Shown here in pieces: positions 25,811-64,000 of a DNA stretch of 64,000 nt (position 1 is the first letter of the stretch; each line of letters opens with the position of its first letter). The DNA is from Saprospiraceae bacterium (GTDB taxonomy: Bacteria > Bacteroidota > Bacteroidia > Chitinophagales > Saprospiraceae). The notes below the pieces were generated by a model. It was given only the letters and a program-made list of their open reading frames with translations, ran no database searches and was not told the DNA's origin. The stretch spans positions 23,353 to 87,352 of the forward strand of contig JBGCFH010000036.1 of NCBI GenBank assembly GCA_045106825.1. The letters run 5' to 3'. A program made the position numbers and the translations under genes.

Positions 25811-26650
25811 ATGAATGTCGAAGAGTACATTATTGAACCTCCTAAAAAGGTCTCTATCAAATGGGAAGAACTCTGGCGTTATCGAGAGTTATTCTACTTT
25901 TTTACTTGGCGAGATATTAAGATAAAATACAAGCAAACAATTTTAGGTTTCCTTTGGGCAATTTTACAACCCTTAGCAATGATGACTGTTTTTGTGTTGT
26001 TTTTTGCTAAAGGCTTGAAGGTATCAACCGATAATATTCCTGCTCCAATATTTTATTTTGTAGGCTTAATGTTTTGGAATTTATTTAGTTCAGGGTTGAA
26101 TAGCTCTGCAAATAGTATGGTAGCAAATGCTGATATTATTAAAAAAATCTACTTTCCACGATTAATAATTCCATTTTCAGGTGTTTTGGTCGCATTATTT
26201 GATTTTTTAATGACCTTACTCCCTTTTATTGTTTTAATGATTTATTATTTAATAACAACAGATTTTGTAATCACCCTTGATATCTTATACCTACTTCCTC
26301 TTGCCTTACTACTAACTTTAACAACAACAGTAGGTTTAGGTTGTACGATTGCAGCATGGAATGTAAAATATCGAGATTTTCGTTATATTGTTCCATTTAT
26401 GATACAATTTTTATTATTCATAACACCCGTAATTTATCCTGTTACGATGTTCGATAATATTCCTTATTTAAAATATATTTTAGCTTTAAATCCAATGACT
26501 GGTGTCATGTTAATGGCACGAAATGGCTTTTCCATGGATAGTTTACCGATTGATTTAATCGGAATCAGTATATTTGTATCTATTTTTTTATTAATAATTG
26601 GTCTTTACATCTTTCGAAGGATGGAGGCTTATTTTGCTGATATTGCTTGA
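25811..26650 (+). CDS. wzm: Polysaccharide ABC exporter permease (ABC-2 type, Wzm/TagG-like)
   Basis: N-terminus ELWRYRELFYFFTWRDIKIKYKQTILGFLWAILQPL is the classic Wzm/KpsM/TagG signature. Six hydrophobic helices. Confidence 0.88.
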   Translation: MNVEEYIIEPPKKVSIKWEELWRYRELFYFFTWRDIKIKYKQTILGFLWAILQPLAMMTVFVLFFAKGLKVSTDNIPAPIFYFVGLMFWNLFSSGLNSSANSMVANADIIKKIYFPRLIIPFSGVLVALFDFLMTLLPFIVLMIYYLITTDFVITLDILYLLPLALLLTLTTTVGLGCTIAAWNVKYRDFRYIVPFMIQFLLFITPVIYPVTMFDNIPYLKYILALNPMTGVMLMARNGFSMDSLPIDLIGISIFVSIFLLIIGLYIFRRMEAYFADIA

Positions 26651-26830
26651 TACAAAGATAAGAACAGCCTGAAAAATTTTCTAAAAACAATTCACATCAG
26701 ATTATTATTGTAAAACTTGAATTTATCAAAGATTCTTTATTAGATTACTCTTATTAGAATCAACCTATAGGAGGCAACTGAAAGTAAATAATATTTGAAG
26801 ATAATTTTGGTTGTTTGACAATTTTTGCGA

Positions 26831-26893
26831 GTAGCGACTGTCTTTAGCTGCCATCTTTTGAAATTGTTTACGGCAGTTAAAGACAGCCGCTAC
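26831..26893. repeat. Long GC-rich stem-loop between wzm and the next gene
   Basis: Arms gtagcgactgtctttagctgcc (26831-26852) and ggcagttaaagacagccgctac (26872-26893) pair at 20 of 22 positions, with a 19-nt loop. The stretch is clearly GC-richer than the flanks. Confidence 0.65.
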
Positions 26894-26933
26894 GTGAAAC
26901 AATAATTTTTGCTAATATAGGAATTTCAACAAT

Positions 26934-27872
26934 ATGAATAAAAAGAAAATAATTTACATATTAGGTGTAGAAAGGAGTGGTTCTACCCTATTAAACATAA
27001 TCTTAGGGAATGATGACCATATAGCAAGTTTTGGAGAATTACAGTACTTTCCTGAAGCTGTTCTAAAAAATCATATGGCATATCAAGATGTCAATATTAA
27101 AGAATCCATATTTTGGTCAAATATTATTAATGAATTTGAAGTAAAATTTGGAACAGATATATTTTTGGAGTACCAAAACCTTAGAATAAAATATGAAAGA
27201 TGGCGTAGTATTCCTATGTTATTATTACACAAACTTTTAAAGAAAAAAACTCTTTTTTCATATTGGGAATATAACGATTTTTTAATCGACCAGTTACAAA
27301 AACGAACAAATAAAGAATACGTTTGTGACTCCTCAAAAAACTATCCTCGCTATTTGGCATTATTACTATCTAATCAATATAAATTTTATCCTATCTTAAT
27401 TATTCGTTCTGTTTATGGATATGTTTGGTCTAAAAAGAAACATTCAATAAATAATGGAAATAGCGACAAAAAACAAAATTTATTTAAGTCTATTATTTTT
27501 TGGAATAGTGATAACCTACTTTTTTTAATTATAAGATTATTTAATATTAAAAAAATCCCCATAGTTAAGTATGAAGATTTTGCAACTACTCCTGAAAATA
27601 CACTCAATAGACTTGAGCAAGTTTTTAATTTAAACCTAAAGTCTGTAAAAAAACATATAAAAGAAAAAAATATATTTACTATAAAAAATACAATAGCGGG
27701 AAATTACAGTTTAAGATTAAAAAATAAAATTTCAATAAAATTAGATAATTCTTGGAAAGTTAATTTAACACTAAAGGAAATAATAACAATATCGATATTA
27801 TCATTCTTTCTATTAAAAATCATAAATTATGAAACCTATTTTAAACGTCCAAAATCTTTGGAAACAATATAA
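26934..27872 (+). CDS. Sulfotransferase family protein (RSGST class)
   Basis: N-terminal PAPS 5'-phosphosulfate-binding loop IYILGVERSGSTLLNIILG. Inserted between wzm and wzt, and its 3' end overlaps wzt by 44 nt. Confidence 0.75.
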   Translation: MNKKKIIYILGVERSGSTLLNIILGNDDHIASFGELQYFPEAVLKNHMAYQDVNIKESIFWSNIINEFEVKFGTDIFLEYQNLRIKYERWRSIPMLLLHKLLKKKTLFSYWEYNDFLIDQLQKRTNKEYVCDSSKNYPRYLALLLSNQYKFYPILIIRSVYGYVWSKKKHSINNGNSDKKQNLFKSIIFWNSDNLLFLIIRLFNIKKIPIVKYEDFATTPENTLNRLEQVFNLNLKSVKKHIKEKNIFTIKNTIAGNYSLRLKNKISIKLDNSWKVNLTLKEIITISILSFFLLKIINYETYFKRPKSLETI

Positions 27873-29049
27873 AATCGGTGGGCAACAGGTATCTTACTTG
27901 AGTTTACGAGAACGATTATTACAGCCTTTTCAACGACAACAAACAAATACTTTTTGGGCTTTGCAAGGTCTTAACTTCGATGTTTATGAAGGGGAATGTA
28001 TTGGAATCATTGGTAGAAATGGAGCAGGAAAATCAACTCTTTTAAAGGTTTTATCTCAAATTACACCGCCGACAAAAGGCTGCATCAAAGCAAGAGGAAG
28101 AGTTGCAAGTTTGTTAGAAGTCGGTACAGGTTTTCATCCCGAGCTGACAGGTAGAGAAAACGTCTATTTAAACGGCTCTATTTTGGGTTTAAAACGAGCA
28201 GAAATTAAGGCTAAATTTGACGAAATCATTGATTTTAGTGGTATTGAAAAGTTCTTAGATACACCCTTAAAACATTATTCAAGTGGAATGCGTTTGCGAT
28301 TAGCTTTTTCGGTTGCAGCACATTTAGAACCTGAAATATTGTTAATTGATGAGGTTTTGGCGGTAGGTGATGCAGAGTTTCAGAAGAAGTGTTTGGGGAA
28401 GATGGATGAGGTGAGTAAGAGTGGACGGACGGTGATTTTTGTGAGTCATAATTTGGGGGCAGTTCGACAGTTGTGTAGTAGGGGGATTTTGCTAAATAAT
28501 GGCAGTATTATAACCGACGCTAATATTGATAATGTTATTAACAAATACTTAGGAAGTTATAACCAAACTTATCCTTCAATAAAAGATAGAAAAGATAGAA
28601 AAGGTAGTCTTCAAACAATCATTACAGAAATTGAATTATTAGAGCAAGGAGAAAAAGTATATAACAACTCTATAACAGCAGGAAATGAGTTGACGATTAT
28701 AATAACTTATAAAAGTTTTAGGAAAGACTATAAACAATTAAATAATTTACATATAGGAATTGCTATTTTCAATCAGTCAAACCAGTTTGTTTCTGTATTA
28801 AACAACAAAATGTCAAATTTTTCACTAACAAATCGCCCTTTAGACGGTAAGGTTTATTGTAAAATTGAGAAACTTCCACTCATGGGAGGAAATTTTTCTT
28901 GTAGGGTATCTCTGGAAGTTAATAATAGTCTATGTGACTACATCGAAGATGCATTCTATATAAATGTATTAGAAGGGGATTATTATTTATCAAAAAACCC
29001 AAACGTACAAAGTCGACAAGGAGTATACATCAATCAATCATGGTATTAA
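27829..29049 (+). CDS. wzt: Polysaccharide ABC exporter ATP-binding protein (Wzt/TagH-like) with about 160-aa C-terminal extension
   Basis: Walker A GRNGAGKST, signature YSSGMRLRLAF, Walker B ILLIDEVL. Residues from about 245 to 406 lie beyond the nucleotide-binding domain, as in Wzt proteins that carry a glycan-terminus-binding module. Confidence 0.88.
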   Translation: MKPILNVQNLWKQYKIGGQQVSYLSLRERLLQPFQRQQTNTFWALQGLNFDVYEGECIGIIGRNGAGKSTLLKVLSQITPPTKGCIKARGRVASLLEVGTGFHPELTGRENVYLNGSILGLKRAEIKAKFDEIIDFSGIEKFLDTPLKHYSSGMRLRLAFSVAAHLEPEILLIDEVLAVGDAEFQKKCLGKMDEVSKSGRTVIFVSHNLGAVRQLCSRGILLNNGSIITDANIDNVINKYLGSYNQTYPSIKDRKDRKGSLQTIITEIELLEQGEKVYNNSITAGNELTIIITYKSFRKDYKQLNNLHIGIAIFNQSNQFVSVLNNKMSNFSLTNRPLDGKVYCKIEKLPLMGGNFSCRVSLEVNNSLCDYIEDAFYINVLEGDYYLSKNPNVQSRQGVYINQSWY

Positions 29050-29870
29050 AAAAAAACAAGCTTCCTTCTTTCTTTATAATTGGAGCACAAAAATGCGGTA
29101 CAACCTATCTAAATAATCTATTAGGTAGTTCTCCATTTATTTATAGTCCCCCAAAAAAAGAAATTGATTTTTTCTCAAGTAATTTACTTTATACAAAAGG
29201 GATTTCTTTTTATAAAAAAAGTTTTAACTGTCCTCTCTATACTCTAAAAACCTTTGAGGCATGTCCAAACTATATGTATTATGAAAAGGCTATTAAACGC
29301 ATCTATAAATTTAACCCCAATTCCAAATTAATAATCATCATCAAAAACCCTGTCGAACGATTTATTTCAGCATGGAATATGTACTATCTATTTTTTGTAA
29401 CAAATGACGACAACAAATGGTATTCAAAAACTAATGTTATGAAAAACTATTTTGGAATCATGCCCTCTCCTCACAATCTAAATGGTATTTCTTTTTTAAA
29501 GAAGTCAATATTTCCTTCTTTAGACGAGGTGATAGAACAAGAAATAAGCGATTTTAAGAAAAATAAACTTCTCTTGGAACCAGGATTTCTTACAAGAGGG
29601 CTTTATATTGAACAAATTAAAAACATATTAAAATACTTCAACAACGAACAACTTTTAGTTATAAACAACAATCAGATTAATTCTTCTCTGCCTCAAATCA
29701 AATCTTTTTTAGGCATAGTACACTACCCTTTTTTCACTAAAAAAGTAAATGGGTTTATTGGAACTTACAAAAATGAAATACCAATATCGAAGTTAGAACA
29801 ACTACATCATTTTTATGAACCCTATAATCAGGAATTATATCACTTCTTAAAAAAAGACTTAAAATGGTAA
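29040..29870 (+). CDS. Sulfotransferase (Sulfotransfer_1-like, KxGTT class)
   Basis: 5'-PSB loop FFIIGAQKCGTTYL and 3'-phosphate motif IIIKNPVERFISAWN. Confidence 0.8.
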   Translation: MVLKKNKLPSFFIIGAQKCGTTYLNNLLGSSPFIYSPPKKEIDFFSSNLLYTKGISFYKKSFNCPLYTLKTFEACPNYMYYEKAIKRIYKFNPNSKLIIIIKNPVERFISAWNMYYLFFVTNDDNKWYSKTNVMKNYFGIMPSPHNLNGISFLKKSIFPSLDEVIEQEISDFKKNKLLLEPGFLTRGLYIEQIKNILKYFNNEQLLVINNNQINSSLPQIKSFLGIVHYPFFTKKVNGFIGTYKNEIPISKLEQLHHFYEPYNQELYHFLKKDLKW

Positions 29871-30754
29871 AATCACCTTTAACCAAAGGAACAGTAACCT
29901 TAATAAAAAAAATACCAGTATCCTTTATAATAGAGGGATATTTAAAAACTTTCGGACTTGATACAAGTAAGTATTTTGATTCAACAGATTATTTGAGTTT
30001 ATATCGCTGCGATGATACAGGATATGAATTTTACCATCCTTTTGAGATTGCAGGTGATGAAAATTTTTATGATTTTTTTCAAGAAAAATATGATTGGTAT
30101 TATCAAAAAGATAAGTGGGAATATGAGCAAGCATTAAAAATCGTAAACTTTAAAGGAGCAAAGGTATTAGAAATCGGTTGTGGAAATGGTTATTTTTTAA
30201 AAAAAGCACTCAACAAAAGTGCGAAAATAGCAGAAGGCTTAGAATTTAATAGTCATGCTGTTCGTTATTGCCAATCCGAAGGTTTAAACGTTTCTAACAA
30301 AAACTTATCTGAAATGCCAAAAGGAAACTTTTACGATATTATTTGTTCTTTTCAAGTTTTGGAACATATTGCTGAGGTGAATACCTTTTTCAAAAAAACA
30401 AGTAGCATTTTAAAGAAAAATGGTAAACTAATTATTGCTGTTCCGAATAATGCCTCAGTTCTTTTTCGCAATCAAAATGATTTAAACTTTATTAATCAAC
30501 TACATACAGAAAATTGTCTGTTAAATATGCCTCCACATCATTTAGGAAGATGGCACTATCAGGTCTTCAAAAACATAGAAGTATTTTTCTCCCTCAAACT
30601 AATAAATGTTGCCTACGAACCAATATGGAATGACAGGTTACACTACTTATCATTATTAAATAAAGAGGATAATATTATACAAAAAATAAATTTTAAATTA
30701 TTTAGACCTTTTATAAAAGGGCATTCAATATTGGTTATCTTAAAAAAAATCTAA
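29864..30754 (+). CDS. Class I SAM-dependent methyltransferase
   Basis: Motif I VLEIGCGNGYF, post-I/II YDIICSFQVLEHI, and LKKNGKLIIAVPN. Overlaps the preceding sulfotransferase by 7 nt. Confidence 0.8.
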   Translation: MVKSPLTKGTVTLIKKIPVSFIIEGYLKTFGLDTSKYFDSTDYLSLYRCDDTGYEFYHPFEIAGDENFYDFFQEKYDWYYQKDKWEYEQALKIVNFKGAKVLEIGCGNGYFLKKALNKSAKIAEGLEFNSHAVRYCQSEGLNVSNKNLSEMPKGNFYDIICSFQVLEHIAEVNTFFKKTSSILKKNGKLIIAVPNNASVLFRNQNDLNFINQLHTENCLLNMPPHHLGRWHYQVFKNIEVFFSLKLINVAYEPIWNDRLHYLSLLNKEDNIIQKINFKLFRPFIKGHSILVILKKI

Positions 30755-31923: not shown

Positions 31924-32141
31924 TTTAGTTCACAACTAATTATAATTTTATTGCTTCTCTGAAAAAAATTATGGTTTCGATGAAAATTGTAAAAAAATGA
32001 AATCTGCTACGATAATATTTGATATTCGGGACTCCGTTGACTTTTAATCAAATACCTAATAGCATCGTCGAAAAGTTTTTATTGTTTTGAATTTTGAACG
32101 TTTCCACAAAACAATTCAAATAACCTTCTTATTATTCAAAA

Positions 32142-34294: not shown

Positions 34295-34349
34295 AATTAT
34301 TAAAAAAGAGGGATTTCATCCGTTTTGTTGAACCTTCACCATTACAATA

Positions 34350-56182: not shown

Positions 56183-57418
56183 CTATTTATTAGTTTTTTT
56201 ATTTGATTTTTTATTGATTTTGCTACTAATTTTGCTATTTTCAATTTTATCACATTTAAGGCTACCGTACTTTACATTTTTCGTTTCACTATTTTTGAGT
56301 AATTTCACACGTTCAAAAGCATAATCTTCTGCGTCTTCTACCGTACAAGACAATACATTGTGTGCTCTTATTCCACGATTACATTGTTTAATGACTACTT
56401 GTTCTATTTCACCTTTTTTTACTTTCATTCCATGAAATATAGCATATTCAAACTTTCTACTATTTTCAATTTTTCCATTTTTTATACTAAACCGTTTTGA
56501 CTTTTTAGGACCTCGAATAAAGCCTCCCTTTATATAAAAATCACTAAGTTCAAATGAAATATTTTGATTACCTACATGAATACGTGATGAATAATCACCA
56601 TCTTCTGCACTACAATCAATATTTCTGATTTTAGCATGTGCTATATGTTCCAAATGAATAGAGCTCTTAATGGTATTGATACTTGAAAAATCATCAATAA
56701 ATAGTTTCGTGTTTTTTCCTACTTCTTTAGAAGCTACTCCCATACCAATATATACCTTCTCTGCATGACAGTTTTCAAGTTTAAAAGTACGTTTCTGATA
56801 TTCAGGGATTCCATCTGAACGAAACTTAAAAGCTTGCGGATATTTATCTATTGGTAAAGCACTATCATATGCTTTACAATTACGAATAATTGCTTCATCT
56901 GCTCTTATACAGATACCATCAGATACAAAATTTCTAAGCGTGACATCTTCTATAAGCACATATTCTGCTTCAAAATTTTGATTTCCTAATATCCCATTAT
57001 TAGTAACTGTTTGTTTCCATTTACTATTGAACTCAGACTTTGGATGACCAGGGTATTTTTGAAAAGATTTATTACCATCAAAAGTTCCTCCTTTCCAAAT
57101 AAATTTAAGGTTCGGTGCTTTTACAGAAATTAAATTATAAGTGCTATTAGGGGCAGCAATAAAAGTTGCTCCATATGCAGAAACCTCCAATTCTTTGGGG
57201 TATATCATAATTGTACTACTAATTAAATAGACTCCTTTGGGAATTTTTATCTTTCCTCCTTTTTGTAATAAGGTTTGTAAAGCCTTTGTATCATCACTTT
57301 TTCCATCGCCTTTCAATTTAAGCATCTTTAGTTCGTTATTACAATTCGTTAAAGTAATAATAATAATAATAGAAAAAAGACTCAACCGAAATATTTTATA
57401 TACAAGTCCAGCCACCAT
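56183..57418 (-). CDS. Right-handed beta-helix (pectate-lyase-fold) lipoprotein
   Basis: Lipobox IIIITLTNC. KGDGKSDDTKALQTLLQKGGKIKIPKGVYLISSTI is the typical N-terminal cap of Pectate_lyase_3/GH28-related beta-helix proteins. Repeated short beta-rungs. Lys-rich tail KISSKINKKSNKKTNK. Confidence 0.6.
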   Translation of the reverse strand: MVAGLVYKIFRLSLFSIIIIITLTNCNNELKMLKLKGDGKSDDTKALQTLLQKGGKIKIPKGVYLISSTIMIYPKELEVSAYGATFIAAPNSTYNLISVKAPNLKFIWKGGTFDGNKSFQKYPGHPKSEFNSKWKQTVTNNGILGNQNFEAEYVLIEDVTLRNFVSDGICIRADEAIIRNCKAYDSALPIDKYPQAFKFRSDGIPEYQKRTFKLENCHAEKVYIGMGVASKEVGKNTKLFIDDFSSINTIKSSIHLEHIAHAKIRNIDCSAEDGDYSSRIHVGNQNISFELSDFYIKGGFIRGPKKSKRFSIKNGKIENSRKFEYAIFHGMKVKKGEIEQVVIKQCNRGIRAHNVLSCTVEDAEDYAFERVKLLKNSETKNVKYGSLKCDKIENSKISSKINKKSNKKTNK

Positions 57419-58139
57419 CTACTATTAAGTTTTGTCCAGTTATATATTGTGCATCATCAGATAATAAAAAAGATACAGGAGATGCAATATCTTTAGGTGT
57501 TCCCATTCGTTTCATAGGAACTTTATATTCATAATTTTTAACAAAAGTAGGATGCTGATTATCAAAGATTCCACCTGGTGAAAGGCAGTTGACTCTTATG
57601 TTATCTTTACCATAAAAAGAGGCTAAATAACGAGAGAAATTAATCAAACCTCCCTTTATTGCTGAATAAGGTGCTGCTGTTTTCAAACCCGTTCCTTCAT
57701 AAATAGTAAAGTCATTACCTACAACACCATATATAGATGCAATGTTAACTATCGCACCACTTTTTTGTTCTTGCATGTAAGGTAATACTTCTTGACAACA
57801 AGCAACATAACTATTCAGTTGTAAATCAACATTTTCTCGCCATGAGTTTAAGTCTAAATCTTCTGCAAATGAAATACCCCAATTTTTTGTTCGAGGATAA
57901 GCATTATTGACTAAACCATCAATTTTTTTATATTTATGAAATACTTGATTTAATGCTTCTCTAAGCTCTATTTGTATCGTAGTATTTACTTCATAAAAAT
58001 CTATGCCTTCTATATTACTGGGTTTTATATCAAAATTAATTGCTTTAGCACCTCGTTTATGAAGTTCATGTAACATCTCCATGCCTAACAAGCCACTTCC
58101 CCCTGTAACAATAATTACTTTACCTTTTAAACTATTCAT
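57396..58139 (-). CDS. Short-chain dehydrogenase/reductase (PtmA-like)
   Basis: VIIVTGGSGLLG and catalytic PYSAIKGG (YxxxK). Confidence 0.75.
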   Translation of the reverse strand: MNSLKGKVIIVTGGSGLLGMEMLHELHKRGAKAINFDIKPSNIEGIDFYEVNTTIQIELREALNQVFHKYKKIDGLVNNAYPRTKNWGISFAEDLDLNSWRENVDLQLNSYVACCQEVLPYMQEQKSGAIVNIASIYGVVGNDFTIYEGTGLKTAAPYSAIKGGLINFSRYLASFYGKDNIRVNCLSPGGIFDNQHPTFVKNYEYKVPMKRMGTPKDIASPVSFLLSDDAQYITGQNLIVDGGWTCI

Positions 58140-59049
58140 TTAAACAAATTTTTAAAACCTTCAAACCATCTTCAAGAGAGTTAGAAGATTCCAGTAAGTT
58201 ATTTTTTACTAATTCCATAAAATACTTCATTTGAGGGGTATATGTATCTCTTAAACCAGTTACACCTTCAAATAAGGTTTTTCCATGATGATTAGTTACT
58301 TTATTTTTGAAAAGATCAACTATTACTGTTTCGTCTTGAAAAATAAGTTCTAAGGTTCTTTTGTAATCTCTTCTGTAATAATTCAACCTAATATTTAGCA
58401 TAAAACGATTATACTCCATTATATATATAGCTGAGTCTATTGCACGAATATCTAAAGATGACTTAGATGTAAATTTAGATAGGACTTCATCAGGTTTGCC
58501 AAACAACCAATAAGTATAATCAATCTCATGAATTAAATCTAAATGAACTCCTCCTCCTAACTCTGGAATAGCACTATATACCTTTCTAAAATCTTGATTA
58601 GGTCTCCAATCAGGAAGATAAGAACCTGCATAAACATTTACTTCATTAAGTTGGTCTTTTTTATCTCGTAAATAGCTACTCACGAAGTTTAGGCTATCTA
58701 AAAATCTTAGATTACAAGCAACATAAGTTAATGTGTCTTTTAGTTGTGACAATAATAAATTACTCTTATCCAGAGAACTCAATACTGGTTTTTCAATAAA
58801 AAGAGGAATATTATACTGACTAACTTGTTCCAATGTATTGTAATGTTCAGAAGTAGGATTACTGATAAGTATAAAGTCAGGAGAAACTTTAGGAATATCT
58901 TCGAAACTATATAAGTTAGTTACGTTTTCGTAAGAACCACTATTCTCTGAAGAACGCAAAGCATATATTTCTGTATTTTCATCTATTTCTAAAATAGCTT
59001 TTATATGCTTTTTTGCAATTGATCCCAATCCTATTATAACTACTCTCAT
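58132..59049 (-). CDS. Gfo/Idh/MocA-family oxidoreductase (PtmF-like)
   Basis: N-terminal Rossmann MRVVIIGLGSIAKKHI and the EKP motif FIEKPV. Confidence 0.7.
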   Translation of the reverse strand: MRVVIIGLGSIAKKHIKAILEIDENTEIYALRSSENSGSYENVTNLYSFEDIPKVSPDFILISNPTSEHYNTLEQVSQYNIPLFIEKPVLSSLDKSNLLLSQLKDTLTYVACNLRFLDSLNFVSSYLRDKKDQLNEVNVYAGSYLPDWRPNQDFRKVYSAIPELGGGVHLDLIHEIDYTYWLFGKPDEVLSKFTSKSSLDIRAIDSAIYIMEYNRFMLNIRLNYYRRDYKRTLELIFQDETVIVDLFKNKVTNHHGKTLFEGVTGLRDTYTPQMKYFMELVKNNLLESSNSLEDGLKVLKICLNE

Positions 59050-59783
59050 GAAAAATTAAAACCTAATTTTTGTTCTCTAATCAAATATTCCATAACATGA
59101 AAGTCTAACTCATAATCAATATCAAAGCAAATGTGAGACATCAAATAAGCTAAACTTTTATCCGTAATAGCACTCTTATAGTTTAAGTCAAAAAAACGTC
59201 TTCTATAAATATAAAAAGAAGCATTCATATCATATACTTTGGGAGCAGATTGTCTTGATAAAATATTTTTATCAAGAGATTTTACTAATCCTACATATCC
59301 ATCTTTTTTCTCCTCTACCATATTAAAATAAGGATTACGGTGTGGTTCACTAACGGAAAAAAGATTCATAGCATCCTTATCGTTTTCCATCATAGATAGA
59401 CTTTCCTTAATATCACTTACAGTCCTTAAAGGTGCTGTAACATCCATATCCAAAATAAAATCAAACTTAATGGTTTTCTCATTTTCATAAAAAAATAAAG
59501 CATCTTTGATTGCATCAACTTTACCTGCTTTATCGGTAGCAAATTTATTTGGTCTTTTATAAGAAGAATTTAAACCAAAACTTTCTGCAACCCTTTTAAT
59601 CTTTTCTGAATCCGTAGAAAGTGCTATTTCTGTAACAAATGAACTGGAAAGTATTTCTTTTACCTCATAAGCTTTTTCAATAGTATAACCAATTAACGGC
59701 TTACCATTTATAGGTTTTATATTTTTATCAGGAACACTTTTAGAACCACCTCTCGCACATATTGTAATTAATAAATTCTTCAT
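59046..59783 (-). CDS. CMP-nonulosonic acid synthetase (acylneuraminate cytidylyltransferase family, LegF/PtmB-like)
   Basis: ICARGGSKSVPDKNIKPINGKPLIGYTI is the CTP_transf_3 signature. Confidence 0.85.
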   Translation of the reverse strand: MKNLLITICARGGSKSVPDKNIKPINGKPLIGYTIEKAYEVKEILSSSFVTEIALSTDSEKIKRVAESFGLNSSYKRPNKFATDKAGKVDAIKDALFFYENEKTIKFDFILDMDVTAPLRTVSDIKESLSMMENDKDAMNLFSVSEPHRNPYFNMVEEKKDGYVGLVKSLDKNILSRQSAPKVYDMNASFYIYRRRFFDLNYKSAITDKSLAYLMSHICFDIDYELDFHVMEYLIREQKLGFNFS

Positions 59784-60860
59784 CTAAAATTTTATATGTT
59801 TAATATCTTTTTGAGCTTTTTCAAAATCATGTGGCTTTCCTATATCCAACCAATAATCTAATATAGGATAATGTACCACTTTTTTACTACTTGAATATAA
59901 AGCCTCCATCAAATCTGTGGCATTGAAATGTTCTTCTTTAGGAATCAAATCAATATATTCTTTTTTAAAGATATAAATACCTGCATTAGAGTAATAAGTA
60001 TAAGTTGGTTTTTCTTTTAGAGCAACTATCCTATCACCTTCAGTTTCAATCACACCATAAGGAATTTGTACTTCATACGGAGTTGTTGCAACAATCATAT
60101 CTCCATCTTTCTCTAACAAGTCTTTAAACATATCTTCATAAGAAATATTAGTAAGCAAGTCAGAGTTCATTACTAAAATGTAATCATTATGAAACTGTTT
60201 AATTAAACTTACAGCACCTATTGTTCCCAAAGGTTCATTCTCTTCTATATAACCAATGTTCAAATCTCTCTCAGCACCGTCACCAAAATAGTCTATTAAT
60301 TGTTGTCCTAAGTATTTGATAGTCATTGTAATATTGCGAATACCAAAATCTTTAAGTCGATCAATGTTATATTCTACAATTGGTTTATTTCCGACTTTAA
60401 GTAAAGGCTTAGGAGTATCTAAAGTTAAAGGTCGAAGCCTTGTTCCTTTACCACCTGCCATTATAACTGCATCAATTGGTAAATAAGATTTTTGTAATCG
60501 AAAGTTAACAATATCTATAACCCTATCTTTTTCATCTAACACAGGAATAACTTTGTAATTCTCAGTTCGCCATTCTTGCATTTGGAGTAAATCAAATTCT
60601 CCTTTTCTGAAAAACTTAGGATGAGACTGAATAAATTTTGTAATTTCATCTTCTAAACCCAAGCCTCTAATCAGACCTCTACGAATGTCTCCGTCTGTTA
60701 AAGAACCAATTAATTTATCATCTTCATCTATTATAAATAGAATAGCATTAGATGCTAACTTATCCAAACGTGTTAGTACATCCCGAACACTACATTCAGT
60801 AGTTATTAAATGTTGTTGTATTGATTTCACCTTAAATAAATTTTTGTGGATTTCCCACAA
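59784..60860 (-). CDS. CBS-domain sugar-phosphate nucleotidyltransferase (PtmE-like)
   Basis: N-terminal CBS pair (ILFIIDEDDKLIGSLTDGDIRRGLI; KVIPVLDEKDRVIDIVN) fused to the NTP-transferase motif AVIMAGGKGTRLRPLTLDTPKPLL. Confidence 0.85.
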   Translation of the reverse strand: MWEIHKNLFKVKSIQQHLITTECSVRDVLTRLDKLASNAILFIIDEDDKLIGSLTDGDIRRGLIRGLGLEDEITKFIQSHPKFFRKGEFDLLQMQEWRTENYKVIPVLDEKDRVIDIVNFRLQKSYLPIDAVIMAGGKGTRLRPLTLDTPKPLLKVGNKPIVEYNIDRLKDFGIRNITMTIKYLGQQLIDYFGDGAERDLNIGYIEENEPLGTIGAVSLIKQFHNDYILVMNSDLLTNISYEDMFKDLLEKDGDMIVATTPYEVQIPYGVIETEGDRIVALKEKPTYTYYSNAGIYIFKKEYIDLIPKEEHFNATDLMEALYSSSKKVVHYPILDYWLDIGKPHDFEKAQKDIKHIKF

Positions 60861-61461
60861 CTTTAGAATTACTTGGAATATCTTTTATTATAACTGTTCC
60901 TGCTCCAATTATTACATTATCACCAATTGTTACACCTTGTTTTATTACTGCTCTTGCTCCTATAAAGGTTTGGCGTCCTACCTTTACATTGCCACATAAA
61001 ATTGCTCCAGGAGCAATATGACTAAAAGCTCCAATTTTACTTTCATGTTCTACTACAGATTGTGTATTACAAATCACACCGTCTGCTAATTCTACACAAG
61101 CATTTACAATAGCCCCATCTCCTACCATAATACCTTTACCTAAAACAACTGTTGATGATATGGAAGCGGAATTATGAATAGCATTAATTGGCATTTTATT
61201 AAGTCTTGCTTTAATTTTCTGGGTTATAATACTACGAACTATATTACTACCTATTGCTACAAAGTAATCTGTTTCCTTAAGCAATTCTAAGTTCTTTTTA
61301 TCATTCTCATTGCCAAAGTATGCTAACTCATATGGATTCCGGATTTTTTGTACATTTTCGAAATAACCTTTTATTTCTATATTCTTGGAAAGAAATATAT
61401 CGCATATTACAAAAGAATGTCCCGAATATCCAATCAAGAAAACTGCCTTACTATTTATCAT
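60832..61461 (-). CDS. NeuD/PglB-family sugar N-acetyltransferase (LegH-like)
   Basis: N-terminal Rossmann-like FLIGYSGHSFVICDI plus left-handed beta-helix hexapeptide repeats (IGDNVIIGAGTVI). Confidence 0.8.
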   Translation of the reverse strand: MINSKAVFLIGYSGHSFVICDIFLSKNIEIKGYFENVQKIRNPYELAYFGNENDKKNLELLKETDYFVAIGSNIVRSIITQKIKARLNKMPINAIHNSASISSTVVLGKGIMVGDGAIVNACVELADGVICNTQSVVEHESKIGAFSHIAPGAILCGNVKVGRQTFIGARAVIKQGVTIGDNVIIGAGTVIIKDIPSNSKVVGNPQKFI

Positions 61462-62560
61462 TCATGTCCTTTAAAGCTTTTATAATCTTATTACTGCTAT
61501 TTTCTATGTAATAAACATTTTCTCCTTTGTAGTCTGATTTTATTTTTTGAACACTTTCTAATATTTTCACCATATCAACCTCTACATCTATTACGTTTTC
61601 ACTCCTTGCCCTACCTTTCTGTCTGTCTCCTATGTTTATTACATATTTTCCCAACGAAGCAGCCTCAATAATTCCACTCGAAGTATTTCCTAAAAGAAAG
61701 GAGCAATATTTTATACATGAAAAATATCCCAGTGAGCCAAAATTTTCAACACATACAATTTTAGAATTCTTTTTAGAAAGCTCTACAAAATAATTTCTTA
61801 TCATACTACCCATGGTATCTGCGTTGGGCATTGTTATCACTATTTGATAATCTTTGGATAATTTTTCAAAAGTATCTACAAGTATTTTAGTATAAGTTTC
61901 GTTCTTTTCAATAGATACAGTTTCAGGATGAAATGTTGTCAATATTGTAGGTATAGATATATCAATATTAAACTGCTTTTGAAATGCTATCTTGGATAAG
62001 AGTTGAAAATTATCTAAGTTTTCTATACTTAATGCTCCTACATTAAAAATATAATGTTCTTGCCCTATTAAGCGCTTTATTTTTTCACAGTAACTTTCAG
62101 TAGCAGCAAAATGTATTGATGACATCAATGTAATAGCATGACGAAATTTATTATCAATTGCCCCAAGAGTTGTTTCCCCACCATGTAAATGAGCTATTTG
62201 AATATTAAAAGGAATAGATGCTGTTACTGCTGCGAACATTTCATATCTATCACCTAATGCAAAAACTAAGTCAACTTGATTTTTTAATTTTTCCCATATA
62301 GCAGCAAATCTTGATACCGTGTTACCAATAGCATTAGAAATAGCAGTTTCAGAATCTCCAAGGATAAGGGTTTCTAATTTTTCTACAATCTCAAATCCAT
62401 CTTGTTCTATTCGCTCTACAGTATATCCGTGAAATCTTGAAAGATGTGTACCAAAAGCGATTATTTTCAAATCAAAAAAATTATCCGCTTTTAATTTTTT
62501 TAATAATGGAAGATAAATACCATAATCAGCACGCGAACTTGTTAAGACAACTATTCTCAT
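61451..62560 (-). CDS. neuC: UDP/GDP-N-acetylhexosamine 2-epimerase, hydrolysing (NeuC family, LegG-like)
   Basis: MRIVVLTSSRADYGIYLPLLKKL and HLHGGE are typical of hydrolysing 2-epimerases. Confidence 0.85.
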   Translation of the reverse strand: MRIVVLTSSRADYGIYLPLLKKLKADNFFDLKIIAFGTHLSRFHGYTVERIEQDGFEIVEKLETLILGDSETAISNAIGNTVSRFAAIWEKLKNQVDLVFALGDRYEMFAAVTASIPFNIQIAHLHGGETTLGAIDNKFRHAITLMSSIHFAATESYCEKIKRLIGQEHYIFNVGALSIENLDNFQLLSKIAFQKQFNIDISIPTILTTFHPETVSIEKNETYTKILVDTFEKLSKDYQIVITMPNADTMGSMIRNYFVELSKKNSKIVCVENFGSLGYFSCIKYCSFLLGNTSSGIIEAASLGKYVINIGDRQKGRARSENVIDVEVDMVKILESVQKIKSDYKGENVYYIENSSNKIIKALKDMNDK

Positions 62561-63576
62561 TATTGAAAATCTTGAAAAGTTATTAAGGTATCTTCACTCA
62601 ATTTTTTAGTCAATTTTCTACCAATGACTGAAAGAACATCCATCGGTGATATACCATTACCAGGACGCTTCATTAATAAATCCTCTTGACGTAAGACATG
62701 TCCTTTTGTGAGGTTATTTGCAGTATGTATGCTTTTTCGAGCAATTTCGATATTTTTCTTTTCAGATTTTGAAGGTTTTTTAATCCCATTCCCCAATGCC
62801 TTTTCAATATTACGAATAGATCGAACCATTTCTTTCAATTCATTAGGTTCAAGAGAAGCACGATGGTCTGGTCCTTCCATATTTCTATCTAATGTAAAAT
62901 GTTTTTCGATACAAATAGCACCTCTCGCTACTGCTGCTATAGCTACCTCAATTCCTAAAGTATGATCAGAATAACCTATATCAACCTTGAATGTCTCCCC
63001 TATAGTATTCATTGCACTAAGATTGACATCTCCTATTGGAGTAGGGTATTCTGTATTACAATGTAATACAGTCACATTATTTCTATCAATACCATTTTCG
63101 TACAAAACATCTAAGGCATCTTCTATTTCTCCAATATCTGCCATTCCTGTAGAAAGGATAATTGGTTTATTTTTAGATGCTATTTTTTCTATAAAGGGTT
63201 TATTTGTTATTTCTCCAGAAGGAATCTTATATAAATCAATCCCCAAATTCTCTAATAAATCTACACTTTCATGGTCGAATGCTGTAGAAAGAAATTTAAT
63301 TCCTTTTTGATTACAATATTTTATTAGAATATTATGTTTTTCTTCATCTAATTCTAACTTCTTAATCATGGCATATTGGCTATTATCATCACCAGTATTT
63401 TCGACTTGATAAGCAGCTTTTTTTGCAGATTTACTTACTAACTTTTCTGCTTTAAATGTTTGAAATTTAACATAATCTACTCCAGCATCAGTAGCTACAT
63501 CTATCAGTTTTTTAGCGATTTCAAGACTACCATTATGGTTCACACCTGCCTCTGCTATAATTAAAGTTTTTCTCAT
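62560..63576 (-). CDS. neuB: Nonulosonic acid synthase (NeuB family, LegI-like)
   Basis: IIAEAGVNHNGSLEIAKKLID, YVKFQTF and STGMA, plus a C-terminal SAF-like domain (HVLRQEDLLMKRPGNGISP). Confidence 0.9.
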   Translation of the reverse strand: MRKTLIIAEAGVNHNGSLEIAKKLIDVATDAGVDYVKFQTFKAEKLVSKSAKKAAYQVENTGDDNSQYAMIKKLELDEEKHNILIKYCNQKGIKFLSTAFDHESVDLLENLGIDLYKIPSGEITNKPFIEKIASKNKPIILSTGMADIGEIEDALDVLYENGIDRNNVTVLHCNTEYPTPIGDVNLSAMNTIGETFKVDIGYSDHTLGIEVAIAAVARGAICIEKHFTLDRNMEGPDHRASLEPNELKEMVRSIRNIEKALGNGIKKPSKSEKKNIEIARKSIHTANNLTKGHVLRQEDLLMKRPGNGISPMDVLSVIGRKLTKKLSEDTLITFQDFQ

Positions 63577-64000
63577 ACCTTCACACTACTTGGAATATTA
63601 ACAATTGTATCTTCTAAAGCATTTGATACAGATAAATTACCTTTAGGGCAGTTTTTGAACATGTCTAATTTATTCATCAACTTCCATATAGGTCGTGTCA
63701 TTATACCGTTATCATTAGAGTATTCTAAAAAATTATTTCTTTCATCTTTTGATGAAAAGCGAATTGCATTCAACCAATAATTAGAAAAACTATTTTCTAA
63801 TTCTTTTAGAGAATTTATACCTTCTAATTTTTCAAAAAACTGATGATATTTTTTTGCTGTTTCTCGCTTATTTTGAATGTAACTATCTAACTGTTCCAAC
63901 TGAGCACAAGCTAAAGCTGCATTTAAATTAGGCATCCGATAATTATAGCCAATTTCATCGTGAGCATATTCCCATCGATGCGGAATTTTAGCCGTAGTTG
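63573..64000 (-). CDS. DegT/DnrJ/EryC1-family sugar aminotransferase, C-terminal part (LegC-like); CDS continues beyond the right edge
   Basis: The frame stays open upstream of the track ORF: ..TAKIPHRWEYAHDEIGYNYRMPNLNAALACAQLEQLD.., which is the conserved GYNYRM.N..AA.G..QL block of this family. Confidence 0.85.
   Translation of the reverse strand, partial: TTAKIPHRWEYAHDEIGYNYRMPNLNAALACAQLEQLDSYIQNKRETAKKYHQFFEKLEGINSLKELENSFSNYWLNAIRFSSKDERNNFLEYSNDNGIMTRPIWKLMNKLDMFKNCPKGNLSVSNALEDTIVNIPSSVKV

Follow-up and report, generated by a model that had tools for sequence, protein, structure and literature searches.

A predicted hypervariable glycan island with seven sulfotransferase-family genes and two export routes in a Saprospiraceae bacterium

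Sulfotransferase-bearing glycan loci in bacteria

Chemically proven sulfated capsules of Vibrio and Cobetia are made from gene clusters that combine sulfotransferases with PAPS genes, and glycolipids or oligosaccharides are the sulfate acceptors of the characterised bacterial relatives NodH and Stf0. Sulfotransferase-rich O-antigen islands were noted earlier in the literature for Salinibacter ruber, and Salinibacter strains differing in such sulfotransferase genes differ in their sulfonated extracellular metabolites. The region studied here lies in a 64-kb stretch of DNA (the window) annotated as a Saprospiraceae bacterium MAG (Bacteroidota), rather than the flavobacterial host assumed in an earlier note.

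That note had also regarded multi-sulfotransferase loci as rare and knew of no comparable flavobacterial system. Among 80 related loci from GTDB species representatives, with sulfotransferases counted within about 21 kb, at least two were found in 49, at least three in 32, at least four in 20 and at least five in 7; the highest count, seven, was reached by a single locus. The Salinibacter islands and the 32 loci with at least three speak against rarity, and the Flavobacteriales MAGs, with 4 to 5 sulfotransferases per locus, provide the missing comparison; cultured Chitinophagaceae carry 5 to 6. Similar clusters are thus common in environmental bacteria, and their kind is already known but chemically uncharacterised.

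The gene order recurs as well. A nine-gene block (surfGT-ST-wzy-wzx-ST-GT4-ST-ST; ST, sulfotransferase) is collinear with the related locus L001 at 46-57% identity (wzx 54%, Wzy_C gene 57%, GT4 at 48084..49196 56%, ST-A2 and ST-A3 52% each). The conserved ST/wzy/wzx/ST/GT4/ST module was found again in loci L008, L019 and L023, and Ilyomonas limi, one Cyclobacteriaceae MAG and one Chitinophagales MAG have the similar order ST/wzy/ST/GT4/ST. Among the cultured carriers of the conserved module are I. limi 17mud1-8 and Parafilimonas terrae DSM 28286. In L008 and L023, the sulfotransferase modules that contain wzy also include homologues of the beta-helix protein. L086, a related multi-sulfotransferase locus that also has a beta-helix gene, shows physical linkage to cysC-cysD-cysN-cysQ and wza, and in L083 a lone sulfotransferase of the module's family lies beside wza/wzc and a Wzy_C gene.

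Two convergent units on a conserved frame

The region consists of two convergently transcribed units on opposite strands with different export routes (Table 1). Unit 1 (25811-34294, plus strand) is a Wzm/Wzt ABC-transporter set with two sulfotransferases. Unit 2 (34350 to beyond 64000, minus strand) is a Wzx/Wzy set with five, together with GDP-fucose genes and a legionaminic-acid-type pathway, and is incomplete in the window, as the locus runs to its end at base 64000. Profile matches bore out the gene complement proposed earlier: wzm/wzt, wzx/Wzy_C, gmd/fcl, nine glycosyltransferases plus a WecA-type initiator, and two methyltransferases. No wza and no wzc/wzz was found in the 64-kb window.

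Table 1. Features of the region, with window coordinates, strand and supporting matches
Feature	Coordinates	Strand	Evidence
PorU2-like type IX secretion sortase paralogue, 1669 aa, conserved left flank	20577..25586	-	divergent from wzm; NCBIfam NF052324 PorU_rel_Nterm 683 bits (cut-off 450); Pfam Peptidase_C25
wzm, ABC-2 permease	25811..26650	+	PF01061 54.8 bits
ST-A1, between wzm and wzt	26934-27872	+	Sulfotransfer_3 39.3 bits (cut-off 27)
wzt, ABC ATPase with C-terminal Wzt_C carbohydrate-binding domain	27829..29049	+	ABC_tran 84 bits; Wzt_C 49.3 bits (cut-off 30.4)
ST-B1	29040-29870	+	Sulfotransfer_1 40 bits; Sulfotransfer_3 37 bits
SAM-dependent methyltransferase	29864..30754	+	Methyltransf_23 57.8 bits
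GT4	30754-31923	+	Glycos_transf_1 102 bits
GT2	32142-33131	+	Glycos_transf_2 78 bits
GT4	33128-34294	+	Glyco_trans_1_4 45 bits
FkbM-family methyltransferase	34350-35213	-	Methyltransf_21 100.8 bits; TIGR01444 122 bits
Two GT32-like DXD glycosyltransferases	35210-36058, 36055-36903	-	Gly_transf_sug 27 and 33.6 bits
GT4	36900-38012	-	Glycos_transf_1 98 bits
RemB/Wzi-family outer-membrane protein, island backbone gene	38166..39773	-	homologue annotations
WecA-type polyprenyl-phosphate HexNAc-1-phosphate transferase, initiating	39906..40982	-	PF00953 142 bits; TIGR02380 138 bits (under cut-off)
fcl, GDP-L-fucose synthesis	41368-42300	-	NF047922 494.6 bits (cut-off 500)
gmd, GDP-L-fucose synthesis	42300-43412	-	TIGR01472 592 bits (cut-off 415)
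NAD-dependent sugar epimerase/dehydratase	43434-44426	-	Epimerase 137.7 bits
GT4	44423-45574	-	Glycos_transf_1 121 bits
Frameshifted methyltransferase-like remnants	45654..46161	-	two overlapping short ORFs, different frames
ST-A2	46285-47181	-	Sulfotransfer_1 43.2 bits; Sulfotransfer_3 38.9 bits
ST-A3	47159-48097	-	Sulfotransfer_3 65.6 bits
GT4 of conserved ST/wzy/wzx/ST/GT4/ST module	48084..49196	-	Glycos_transf_1 135 bits
ST-B2	49200-50051	-	Sulfotransfer_1 68.1 bits
wzx flippase	50052-51530	-	Polysacc_synt 72 bits
Wzy_C-domain polymerase or ligase	51514-52788	-	Wzy_C 65.7 bits
ST-B3	52767-53699	-	Sulfotransfer_1 76.4 bits; Sulfotransfer_3 69 bits
Candidate nonulosonic-acid transferase, distant BFO_1060/TIGR04396 family	54015..55286	-	NF046086 113.6 bits (cut-off 200); TIGR04396 107 bits (cut-off 125)
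ST-A4	55286-56170	-	Sulfotransfer_3 40.5 bits; Sulfotransfer_1 29.9 bits
Beta-helix (pectate-lyase-like) protein	56183..57418	-	PF12708 32 bits
Legionaminic-acid-type CMP-nonulosonate gene set	57396..64000	-	NeuB TIGR03569 509 bits (cut-off 400); NeuC TIGR03568 378 bits (cut-off 236); NeuD TIGR03570 190 bits (cut-off 161); CTP_transf_3 65 bits (CMP-NulO synthetase); NTP_transferase 154 bits plus CBS domain (PtmE-like); NF050062 163 bits, under cut-off (PtmA-like SDR)

Several genes allow a tentative functional assignment. The methyltransferase of unit 1 is a candidate O-methylase or chain terminator. The RemB/Wzi-type ORF has no Pfam or NCBIfam match of its own; among its 4491 homologues, several are annotated as RemB or 'capsule assembly Wzi family', some with PF14052. 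The Wzy_C domain is compatible with a polymerase, a ligase or an O-oligosaccharyltransferase alike. By eye, the N-terminus of the beta-helix protein suggests a lipoprotein signal, and the protein is possibly a periplasmic or surface glycan-modifying enzyme. The remnants comprise a 122-aa ORF (45654-46022), which has no Pfam or NCBIfam match, and a 64-aa ORF (45967-46161); class I methyltransferase-like strings can be seen by eye (VVDID..., ...MVIEHTKNV...LSKGGL), and the pair is probably a pseudogene or an assembly error.

The CMP-nonulosonate set comprises a PtmA-like SDR, a GFO/IDH/MocA oxidoreductase, a CMP-NulO synthetase, a CBS plus NTP-transferase (PtmE-like) protein, a NeuD/PglD acetyltransferase, NeuC/LegG, NeuB/LegI and a DegT/LegC aminotransferase, and matches the GDP-GlcNAc legionaminic-acid route of Tannerella forsythia and Campylobacter jejuni. 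Genes for the nonulosonic-acid pathway are therefore present as claimed before, but its completeness is not demonstrable, since the aminotransferase frame stays open to base 64000 and leaves the window, where no LegB-type dehydratase was seen.

Comparison with the close relatives L087-L090 separates a conserved backbone from variable cassettes. The common frame consists of PorU2 (73-80% identical across relatives, at the same position in L087 and L088), wzm-wzt (wzm 85-86% identical) and RemB/Wzi (73-75%), to which L087 adds wecA-fcl-gmd (86-87%; wecA 86%). The nucleotide-binding domain of Wzt is 83-84% identical to that of the relatives, and its C-terminal domain shares 24% identity with L087 and is undetectable against L088. 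The cassettes of these relatives are unrelated and hold 0 or 3 sulfotransferases. The comparison marks the region as a hypervariable glycan island.

Seven sulfotransferases of two classes

All seven proposed ORFs are present, and their translations contain the P-loop strings ERSGSTLL, AQKCGTTYL, YGRSGSTLL, APRSGSTLL, APKCGTTSL, AEKSGTTWL and SARSGTTIL as well as the three RNPxxRxxS-type strings quoted earlier. Where a gene lies on the minus strand (five of the seven), the earlier note gives its low coordinate, at the stop codon. Each of the seven exceeds the Pfam gathering cut-off of Sulfotransfer_1 and/or Sulfotransfer_3 (best scores between 39 and 76 bits, with cut-offs ranging from 22 to 27). 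A separate HMM search, covering all window ORFs from 120 aa upwards, returned exactly these seven and no eighth. The 5'-PSB loop, the [R/K]-x7-S 3'-phosphate motif and a conserved Glu are kept throughout, so that the 3'-phosphate motif, previously credited to three, is found in 7/7; in alignments, Glu, Arg and Ser are invariant across both classes.

Pairwise identity among the seven is at most 32%. The division into two classes of three and four copies held in part, as the four 'RSGST' proteins (class A) themselves split into two subgroups, ST-A1 with ST-A2 and ST-A3 with ST-A4. The class B enzymes (ST-B1, ST-B2 and ST-B3) are heparan-sulfate-sulfotransferase-like. Among these, ST-B3 is the nearest of the seven to heparan sulfate 3-O-sulfotransferases, with an aligned E-x-H-F-F motif (PDB matches: 3rnl, 7e-27; HS 3-OST-5/3A1/1, 1e-16 to 1e-14; NDST, 1e-13). 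ST-B1 is 28-31% identical to the other two and has Lys in place of Arg in its 3'-PB motif (KNPVERFIS), and ST-B2 is 100% identical to the NCBI entry 'MAG: sulfotransferase domain-containing protein [Saprospiraceae bacterium]'. The closest structures to class A are tyrosylprotein and polyketide sulfotransferases, and its members are only distant kin of any characterised carbohydrate sulfotransferase. ST-A2 matches the CurM sulfotransferase at 3e-4, and ST-A3 aligns with the class B profile at a probability of 96% (hhalign).

Structure prediction and fold search for two of the seven, ST-A1 and ST-A4, returned essentially only sulfotransferases. ST-A1 is the weakest of the set, and its AF2 model (pLDDT 91.6) matched only sulfotransferases at E<=1e-3, including all of its best 17 PDB fold matches (17/17). 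In family alignment A4 its G16/T18/L19, E35, R158 and S166 are invariant; a C-terminal hydrophobic helix spans residues 279-297 (KD19 hydropathy 1.76 at residue 279). The model of ST-A4 is of low confidence (pLDDT 62.6), and its best 49 fold matches are likewise all sulfotransferases (49/49), with E42, R156 and S164 in invariant columns of alignment A5. Taken together, the seven ORFs can be regarded as genuine PAPS-type sulfotransferase-fold proteins amid surface-glycan genes.

As stated before, a hydrophobic N-terminal segment is absent in 7/7, and a cytoplasmic location is predicted. The window was also correctly said to hold no PAPS-synthesis genes: its ORFs of at least 90 aa gave no match to the APS kinase, ATP sulfurylase or CysQ families.

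Two proposed assembly lines and their likely products

We favor, with fair confidence, an island of hypervariable surface-glycan genes that occupies a fixed site on the chromosome of a Saprospiraceae lineage, and in which two assembly lines are both decorated by PAPS-dependent sulfotransferases. In unit 1, three glycosyltransferases would build the whole polymer in the cytoplasm on undecaprenyl-PP, two sulfotransferases and the methyltransferase would modify it, and Wzm/Wzt would export it, the variable Wzt C-terminal domain reading a glycan-specific terminal structure. The unit 2 repeat would be started by the WecA-type enzyme and extended by about six further glycosyltransferases from donors including GDP-L-fucose and a CMP-legionaminic-acid-type sugar, among others. 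Still lipid-linked and in the cytoplasm, this repeat would be decorated by five mutually divergent sulfotransferases and the FkbM methyltransferase. After flipping by Wzx, its polymerisation or ligation would fall to the Wzy_C protein, with the RemB/Wzi-family and beta-helix proteins acting later at the cell surface. The locus glycans are the putative acceptors, and both cytoplasmic sulfation and any number of sulfates per repeat are predictions.

The earlier note had instead envisaged one super-locus, with all seven sulfotransferases acting on a single densely sulfated fucose/nonulosonic-acid polysaccharide of fucoidan- or GAG-like character. The genes are indeed contiguous with no unrelated gene in between, the sole WecA-type initiator (39906-40982) could prime both units, and all seven enzymes look catalytically intact. 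This proposal is nevertheless improbable: Wzm/Wzt and Wzx/Wzy_C are two complete, different export routes on opposite strands, the Wzx/Wzy module stands alone with its sulfotransferases in L001, and in relatives the cassette next to wzm-wzt varies independently of the one beyond RemB. Because the export routes are separate and the cassettes vary independently, two differently sulfated glycans are more likely than one polymer. The comparison with fucoidan or GAG is an analogy only, while a sulfated surface glycan with fucose and nonulosonic acid is a reasonable prediction.

Unit 2 might alternatively serve general protein O-glycosylation or an S-layer, as known from T. forsythia; its product would then be no polysaccharide but an oligosaccharide bearing sulfate and a legionaminic-acid cap, with Wzy_C as the ligase or O-oligosaccharyltransferase. 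Ligases also have this domain, the window is without wzz, wzc and wza, and the Leg genes form a set similar to the one in T. forsythia 92A2. The candidate NulO transferase, moreover, falls distantly in the family of BFO_1060, a homologue of the T. forsythia Leg-derivative transferase; in that species, members of the family transfer derivatives of Pse or Leg onto protein O-glycans. The match to this family, however, is under its cut-off. Adjacent wzx-wzy genes with a WecA-type initiator form a classic O-antigen arrangement, a Wzi/RemB-type protein is present, and the links to wza in L086 and to wza/wzc in L083 likewise point to a polymer, which leaves O-glycosylation unlikely. We consider it very improbable that the acceptors of some or all sulfotransferases are glycolipids, lipids, small metabolites, peptides or other non-glycan or non-polymeric compounds, the position of the genes in a glycan locus being incidental. 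Tyrosylprotein, CurM/OLS and mycobacterial glycolipid sulfotransferases as the closest solved structures of class A would fit such acceptors, as would the substrates of NodH and Stf0 and the metabolite differences among Salinibacter strains. Against this, class B is most like polysaccharide sulfotransferases, and the genes are interleaved one by one with glycosyltransferases, wzx, wzy, wzm and wzt, an arrangement conserved across phyla.

With seven genuine sulfotransferases in two neighbouring surface-polysaccharide gene sets, the source cell probably makes sulfated surface sugars. Furthermore, because sulfotransferase number varies among relatives (0, 3 or 7), the comparison suggests that the pattern of sulfation is a surface trait resembling a serotype, its variability presumably driven by phage or grazer pressure.

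Family, motifs and fold of the seven sulfotransferases

The earlier note had listed seven ORFs that begin with a P-loop and had taken them for sulfotransferases (STs). ORF listing and translation recovered all seven at its positions and with its P-loop strings, the coordinates of the five minus-strand genes being their stop-codon ends, and the identification held in profile HMM and fold searches. Instead of falling mostly into other P-loop families, each of the seven exceeds the curated gathering cut-off of Pfam Sulfotransfer_1 (PF00685, 22 bits) and/or Sulfotransfer_3 (PF13469, 27 bits). Custom HMMs, trained on the seven together with related sequences, match exactly these seven STs among the window ORFs of at least 120 aa. 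The label "flavobacterial" is not supported, as three window proteins are 100% identical to entries of a Saprospiraceae bacterium MAG and the upstream T9SS genes fit Bacteroidota. In the following, each ST is named by its first coordinate.

Main features of the window with their profile matches (ST_1, Sulfotransfer_1; ST_3, Sulfotransfer_3)
Feature	Position	Strand	Details
PorU2-like T9SS sortase paralogue	20577-25586	-	1669 aa; NF052324 683 bits
Unit 1: wzm, ST, wzt, ST, SAM-methyltransferase, GT4, GT2, GT4	25811-34294	+	Wzm PF01061 54.8 bits; Wzt PF00005 84 bits, Wzt_C carbohydrate-binding domain PF14524 49.3 bits (cut-off 30.4)
ST	26934-27872	+	ST_3 39.3 bits
ST	29040-29870	+	ST_1 40.0, ST_3 37.0 bits
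Unit 2	34350 to window end	-	gene groups in the rows below
FkbM methyltransferase, two GT32-like transferases, GT4		-	unit 2
RemB/Wzi-family outer-membrane protein	38166-39773	-	535 aa; no Pfam match itself
WecA-type initiating transferase, then fcl, gmd, epimerase, GT4		-	unit 2
Two short overlapping ORFs	45654-46161	-	different frames; 122 aa (no Pfam match) and 64 aa
ST, ST, GT4, ST, wzx, Wzy_C protein, ST		-	unit 2
ST	46285-47181	-	ST_1 43.2, ST_3 38.9 bits
ST	47159-48097	-	ST_3 65.6 bits
ST	49200-50051	-	ST_1 68.1, ST_3 44.7 bits
ST	52767-53699	-	ST_1 76.4, ST_3 69.0 bits
Distant BFO_1060/TIGR04396-family transferase, then ST, beta-helix protein		-	unit 2
ST	55286-56170	-	ST_3 40.5, ST_1 29.9 bits
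Pectate-lyase-like beta-helix protein	56183-57418	-	
PtmA-like SDR, GFO/IDH/MocA oxidoreductase, CMP-synthetase, CBS+nucleotidyltransferase (PtmE-like), NeuD/PglD acetyltransferase, NeuC, NeuB, DegT aminotransferase		-	unit 2; nonulosonic-acid set

All seven STs carry an N-terminal 5'-phosphosulfate-binding loop (a strand, then [K/R]-x-G-[S/T]-T-x-L), whose Gly and Leu columns are near-invariant in both ST classes in the family alignment A5. The 3'-phosphate motif had been reported as RNPxxRxxS-type in three ORFs; the three strings are there, and the motif extends in the form [R/K]-x7-S to all seven (R-x7-S in six, K-x7-S in ST 29040). Its Arg and Ser columns are invariant in A5, which comprises 19 sequences of both classes and six of the seven window STs, ST 29040 being outside it. 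A Glu after strand 2 is likewise invariant (E35 in alignment A4, E35 of ST 49200 in A2/A3, E42 of ST 55286 in A5) and aligns with the E-x-H-F-F region of the heparan sulfate (HS) enzyme 3-OST-5; its predicted role is that of the catalytic base.

Matches to solved structures point the same way. ST 52767, of class B, matched the bacterial structure 3rnl (Alicyclobacillus) at 7e-27; its hits to HS 3-O-sulfotransferases and NDST lie between 1e-13 and 1e-16, and their alignment takes in the catalytic E-x-H-F-F region. With 3rnl and the animal HS enzymes it has in common the K-x-G-T-T 5'-loop, E-x-H-F-F and the R-N-P-x-x-R-x-x-S 3'-motif, whereas class B enzymes are bacterial and cytoplasmic and have no Golgi anchor; the likeness is one of enzyme sequence and does not by itself imply a heparan backbone. 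For ST 26934, the weakest Pfam scorer, a model from a 19-sequence alignment reached pLDDT 91.6 and pTM 0.89, and its PDB fold matches at E≤1e-3 are STs in 17 of 17 cases (TPST1/2, the ST domains of CurM and OLS, Stf1, Stf9). ST 55286 gave a low-confidence model (pLDDT 62.6), of which the top 49 fold matches are all STs. Kinases appear among the matches of these two proteins only far below the STs, and non-ST P-loop families such as kinases and GTPases are thereby ruled out. Against the class B profile, hhalign gave a probability of 96% for ST 47159 and an uninformative 6% for ST 55286 as a single sequence, so that the family membership of the latter is drawn from Pfam, alignment A5 and the fold search with a weak model.

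Pairwise identity among the seven is at most 32%, which excludes recent tandem duplication as their source; judged by sequence, they are distinct enzymes rather than recent duplicates. The proposed split into classes of three and four copies stands for the class B trio (29040, 49200, 52767), but the other four form two groups, 26934 with 46285 and 47159 with 55286. None of the seven has an N-terminal hydrophobic segment, in agreement with the earlier statement that they have no N-terminal signal peptide; ST 26934 has a C-terminal hydrophobic helix. In most homologues of ST 26934, strand 2 is followed, ahead of the next helix, by a C-x-C-[G/D]-x5-6-C motif (A4 columns at about residues 48-60), possibly a metal or disulfide knuckle, which is absent from both window members (26934, 46285) and from two homologues.

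Two gene units and their predicted sugar donors

Pfam and NCBIfam annotation resolved two convergently transcribed units where the earlier note had seen one super-locus for a densely sulfated fucose/nonulosonic-acid polysaccharide; taken as a whole, its observation is confirmed, while its interpretation is only partly supported. Unit 1 is a Wzm/Wzt (ABC-transporter) gene set with one Methyltransf_23 protein and two STs, none of which stands out as a chain-terminating enzyme. ST 26934 sits between wzm and wzt, 284 bp downstream of wzm and with its 3' end overlapping the start of wzt (27829) by 44 nt; in the related loci L087 and L088, wzm and wzt are directly adjacent. No protein resembling WbdD, with its kinase-methyltransferase and coiled-coil ruler, was identified. 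In E. coli O8/O9a, ABC export of the O-antigen by Wzm/Wzt depends on a terminal cap, with WbdD as terminator. The window resembles that system in its Wzm, in a Wzt with a Wzt_C domain (here hypervariable beside a conserved ATPase) and in the methyltransferase of the unit, and differs from it in the two STs of unit 1, one of them between wzm and wzt.

Unit 2 is a Wzx/Wzy gene set, comprising an initiating phosphoglycosyl transferase (PF00953, 142 bits), Wzx (PF01943, 72 bits) and a Wzy_C protein (PF04932, 65.7 bits) whose domain match fits a polymerase or a ligase alike. Neither Wzz/Wzc nor Wza is present among the window ORFs; the window ends at base 64000, and these genes may lie beyond it or elsewhere. 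Wzz/Wzc-Wza-type genes are carried by the related loci L083 and L086. In place of these, only a RemB/Wzi-family outer-membrane protein is present, the product of the only "unknown" gene of the locus. It has 4491 homologues in a very large Bacteroidota family, some members of which go by the name gliding motility protein RemB and others by capsule assembly Wzi family. Its gene belongs to the conserved backbone of the island and adjoins wecA in the window, L087 and L013; the protein may have a role in holding or exporting the glycan. The two short ORFs at 45654-46161 resemble fragments of a class I SAM-methyltransferase, either left over from a pseudogene or produced by a frameshift in the MAG assembly, within an otherwise tightly packed operon. 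The beta-helix protein has homologues in the wzy-containing ST modules of L008 and L023, and L086 carries such a gene as well. Its N-terminus suggests a lipoprotein signal, and the protein could depolymerise the glycan, trim its chain length or, as an epimerase, modify the polymer after export.

For fucose, Gmd matches TIGR01472 at 592 bits (cut-off 415), and Fcl matches NF047922 at 494.6 bits, marginally below the cut-off of 500. In the nonulosonic-acid set, TIGR03569 (509 bits), TIGR03568 (378 bits) and TIGR03570 (190 bits) all exceed their cut-offs and indicate NeuB/LegI-, NeuC/LegG- and NeuD/LegH-type proteins, although these models do not tell Leg from Neu5Ac synthases. A LegF-type CMP-synthetase (CTP_transf_3, 65 bits) and a PtmE-type guanylyltransferase (CBS+NTP_transferase, 154 bits) accompany them. 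A CMP-legionaminic acid pathway and a Leg-derivative transferase have been described for T. forsythia FDC 92A2/UB4 and C. jejuni (PMC5378307, PMC5420450). With these, the window has in common the PtmE-like guanylyltransferase, a PglD/NeuD-like acetyltransferase, a hydrolysing 2-epimerase, a NeuB-type synthase, a CMP-synthetase, DegT and a BFO_1060-family candidate; by gene content, the set is the predicted GDP-GlcNAc legionaminic-acid route of C. jejuni/T. forsythia (PMC5378307). In T. forsythia, the Leg-derivative transferase has BFO_1060 as its homologue (PMC5420450), and the window match to this family lies below the family cut-off.

The C-terminal part of the DegT-family ORF starts at 63573 and its frame is open to base 64000, so that the locus continues past the window; a truncated DegT pseudogene was rejected on the same ground. 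No LegB candidate is visible next to DegT within the window; with the LegB model, whose cut-off is 475 bits, the epimerase/dehydratase at 43434-44426 reaches no more than 68.6 bits. The earlier description as a complete nonulosonic-acid pathway is thus not affirmed. PAPS-synthesis genes are absent from the window ORFs, as previously stated.

Promoter-like sites in 25000-42000 were fewer than in shuffled sequence, which left the promoter/terminator scan uninformative, and Rfam and tRNA scans of the window gave no matches. Upstream, and unrelated to the STs, lie an N6/N4 DNA methyltransferase (PF01555) followed by a 232-aa ORF that has no Pfam match (16099-18291, + strand), possibly a restriction-modification pair, and a dynamin-family GTPase (2355-4127, - strand).

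Related loci and known systems

Contigs L087 and L088-L090 carry a RemB 73-75% identical to that of the window. They have a common frame of PorU2-like sortase, divergent wzm-wzt, cassette and RemB, with wecA-fcl-gmd also in L087. Identity to the window is 73-80% for PorU2, 85-86% for wzm and 83-84% for the Wzt ATPase domain, and 86-87% for wecA, fcl and gmd in L087. The cassette genes are unrelated to those of the window, with no ST in L087 and three STs in L088-L090. Judged from these relatives, with their conserved frame around unrelated cassettes, the region is a glycan island of fixed position and hypervariable content, and ST number is a variable trait of it (0, 3 or 7). The C-terminal domain of Wzt is 24% identical to that of L087 and undetectable against L088, as would be expected of a domain that recognises a serotype-specific glycan end. 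Alongside its three STs, the L088-L090 cassette (14958-15889) encodes a polysaccharide pyruvyl transferase and a UDP-glucose dehydrogenase. It thus seems that one and the same site exchanges different anionic decorations, namely sulfate, pyruvate, uronic acid and nonulosonic acid. The order of PorU2 and wzm-wzt, divergent from 25811 onward in the window, is kept in relatives despite the different cassette (L087 21115-21689; L088/L089 18996-21614). It may reflect a functional link between the T9SS sortase paralogue and an ABC-exported glycan, by analogy with A-LPS anchoring of T9SS cargo, or may be plain synteny among close relatives.

More distantly, the 10-kb metagenomic contig L001 contains a block collinear with window 46285-55286 at 46-57% identity, in the order transferase-ST-ST-wzy-wzx-ST-GT4-ST-epimerase-ST, and Ilyomonas limi, a chromosome from Cyclobacteriaceae and a MAG from Chitinophagales each carry a comparable ST/wzy/(wzx)/ST/GT4/ST module. 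By this recurrence, the STs travel together with the polymerase/flippase as one functional module. In L086 (Logan SRR31857227, 1-20876), cysC-cysD-cysN-cysQ-wza lies directly upstream of Wzy and four STs, together with GT4s, an MBOAT acyltransferase and a Bac_transf initiator. By its predicted gene content, this compact and self-sufficient "sulfated polysaccharide" cluster ties multi-ST glycan clusters to PAPS supply, and it is a good candidate model system.

A scan of GTDB species representatives with a 6-sequence class B alignment returned at least 574 relatives, spanning Bacteroidota, Cyanobacteria, Actinomycetota, Planctomycetota, Chloroflexota, Myxococcota and archaea. STs were counted by custom HMMs, with de-duplication, in the best 80 of these at least 574 loci, each about 21 kb or less. 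In this sample, which is biased by one ST class, best matches, at least one ST in every locus and crude ORF calling, at least two STs occur in 49 loci, at least three in 32, at least four in 20, at least five in seven and at least six in two, a distribution that nonetheless overturns the premise that glycan loci carry no ST or only one or two. A Clostridia MAG holds the most among the 80, seven; 4-5 were counted in Flavobacteriales MAGs, 6 in Ilyomonas limi 17mud1-8, 5 in Parafilimonas terrae DSM 28286 and 2 in Pontimicrobium sp. IMCC45349.

Cyanobacterial loci are among the class B relatives (L028, L035, L049, L053, L062, L069), the ST-matching ORFs of L053 and L069 being about 600-850 aa and far longer than a single ST domain. 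The synechan xss locus of Synechocystis is a Wzx/Wzy-type cyanobacterial locus for sulfated EPS with dedicated STs; likened to the window by description only, it has fewer STs and belongs to another phylum. In Vibrio sp. KMM 8419 and Cobetia marina KMM 1449, sulfated capsular polysaccharide clusters have NMR-proven products (PMC11641403, PMC11766843). These clusters and the window both place PAPS-type STs in surface polysaccharide clusters with an ABC-transporter route and proposed cytoplasmic sulfation before export. However, the former have 1-3 STs, cysDNC(Q) inside and Kps-type (group 2/3) export, whereas the window, known from its genes alone, has seven STs, no PAPS genes and both Wzm/Wzt and Wzx/Wzy. 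Salinibacter ruber has hypervariable O-antigen/cell-surface islands rich in STs and glycosyltransferases, according to Pena et al. 2010 (cited in PMC3669384; PMC6060240), and Salinibacter/Salinivenus loci were recovered as class B relatives with 2-4 STs each (L014, L021, L025, L029, L060). Like the Salinibacter islands, the window has a strain-variable surface-glycan island with several STs among glycosyltransferases; it differs in its Saprospiraceae lineage, its conserved frame of PorU2, wzm-wzt and RemB/Wzi (plus wecA-fcl-gmd in one relative), its two export routes and its legionaminic-acid-type pathway.

Proposed glycans, alternatives and wider meaning

The reading we consider likely is that two glycans are made, one per unit. 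The polymer of unit 1 would be assembled in the cytoplasm on undecaprenyl-PP and sulfated and methylated there, after which the Wzt_C domain would recognise its end and Wzm/Wzt would export it. In unit 2, fucose and a legionaminic-acid-type sugar would enter a repeat unit built on the WecA product; five different cytoplasmic STs and one methyltransferase would decorate it, Wzx would flip it, and the Wzy_C protein would polymerise or ligate it. Sulfation is placed in the cytoplasm because the STs have no signal peptides and PAPS is a cytoplasmic metabolite; the acceptors and the number of sulfates per repeat are likewise inferred.

In Tannerella, the sugar made by a comparable gene set caps a protein O-glycan, with no sulfation involved. 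A protein O-glycan as the product here is unlikely. A single polymer made by all the genes, to which fucose, nonulosonic acid and all seven STs would contribute, is distinctly unlikely beside two convergent units with an export route each. Non-glycan acceptors are very unlikely for STs that travel with a polymerase and flippase.

Within the two-glycan reading, the ST between wzm and wzt might add a terminal sulfate as a chain-stopping cap, read by the lineage-specific Wzt C-terminal domain, and the anionic glycan might anchor T9SS cargo for the divergent PorU2 paralogue, as in Porphyromonas A-LPS. We regard this reading as very unlikely; if true, it would make the sulfate cap an O-polysaccharide terminator of a new kind. 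Two other MAGs, one from Anaerolinea (L072) and one from Gaiellaceae (L045), also have an ST directly beside a true wzm/wzt pair. A constant tie of the ST 26934 type to wzm/wzt was rejected, since its homologues P0027, P0029 and P0030 lie in Wzx/Wzy- or Wza-type loci; comparative support for the cap is thus limited to the adjacency in L045 and L072.

Sulfated and nonulosonic-acid-bearing polymers have been measured chemically in granular sludge, anammox granules and microbial mats, with producers and enzymes largely unknown (PMC10483923, PMC7356697, PMC9723792). Reviews, including one of 2024 (PMC11625862), describe bacterial polysaccharide STs as almost or largely unexplored, and according to the Pontiella papers no prokaryotic GAG sulfotransferase has been characterised. 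Multi-ST glycan loci are therefore known genomically but almost unknown biochemically. The present locus is not unique and would not surprise a specialist; its value is that of a well-resolved representative of its kind, with HS-3-OST-like enzymes next to wzx/wzy and a legionaminic-acid-type pathway in unit 2. The survey weighs more than the single window, with multi-ST glycan modules widespread across Bacteroidota and other phyla and strain-variable at a fixed site. Ilyomonas limi, Parafilimonas terrae and Pontimicrobium are cultured carriers of such modules, which makes the chemistry directly testable, and the STs are candidate regiospecific tools for sulfated-glycan synthesis. The question of which bacteria, with which enzymes, make sulfated glycans has thereby been made testable.
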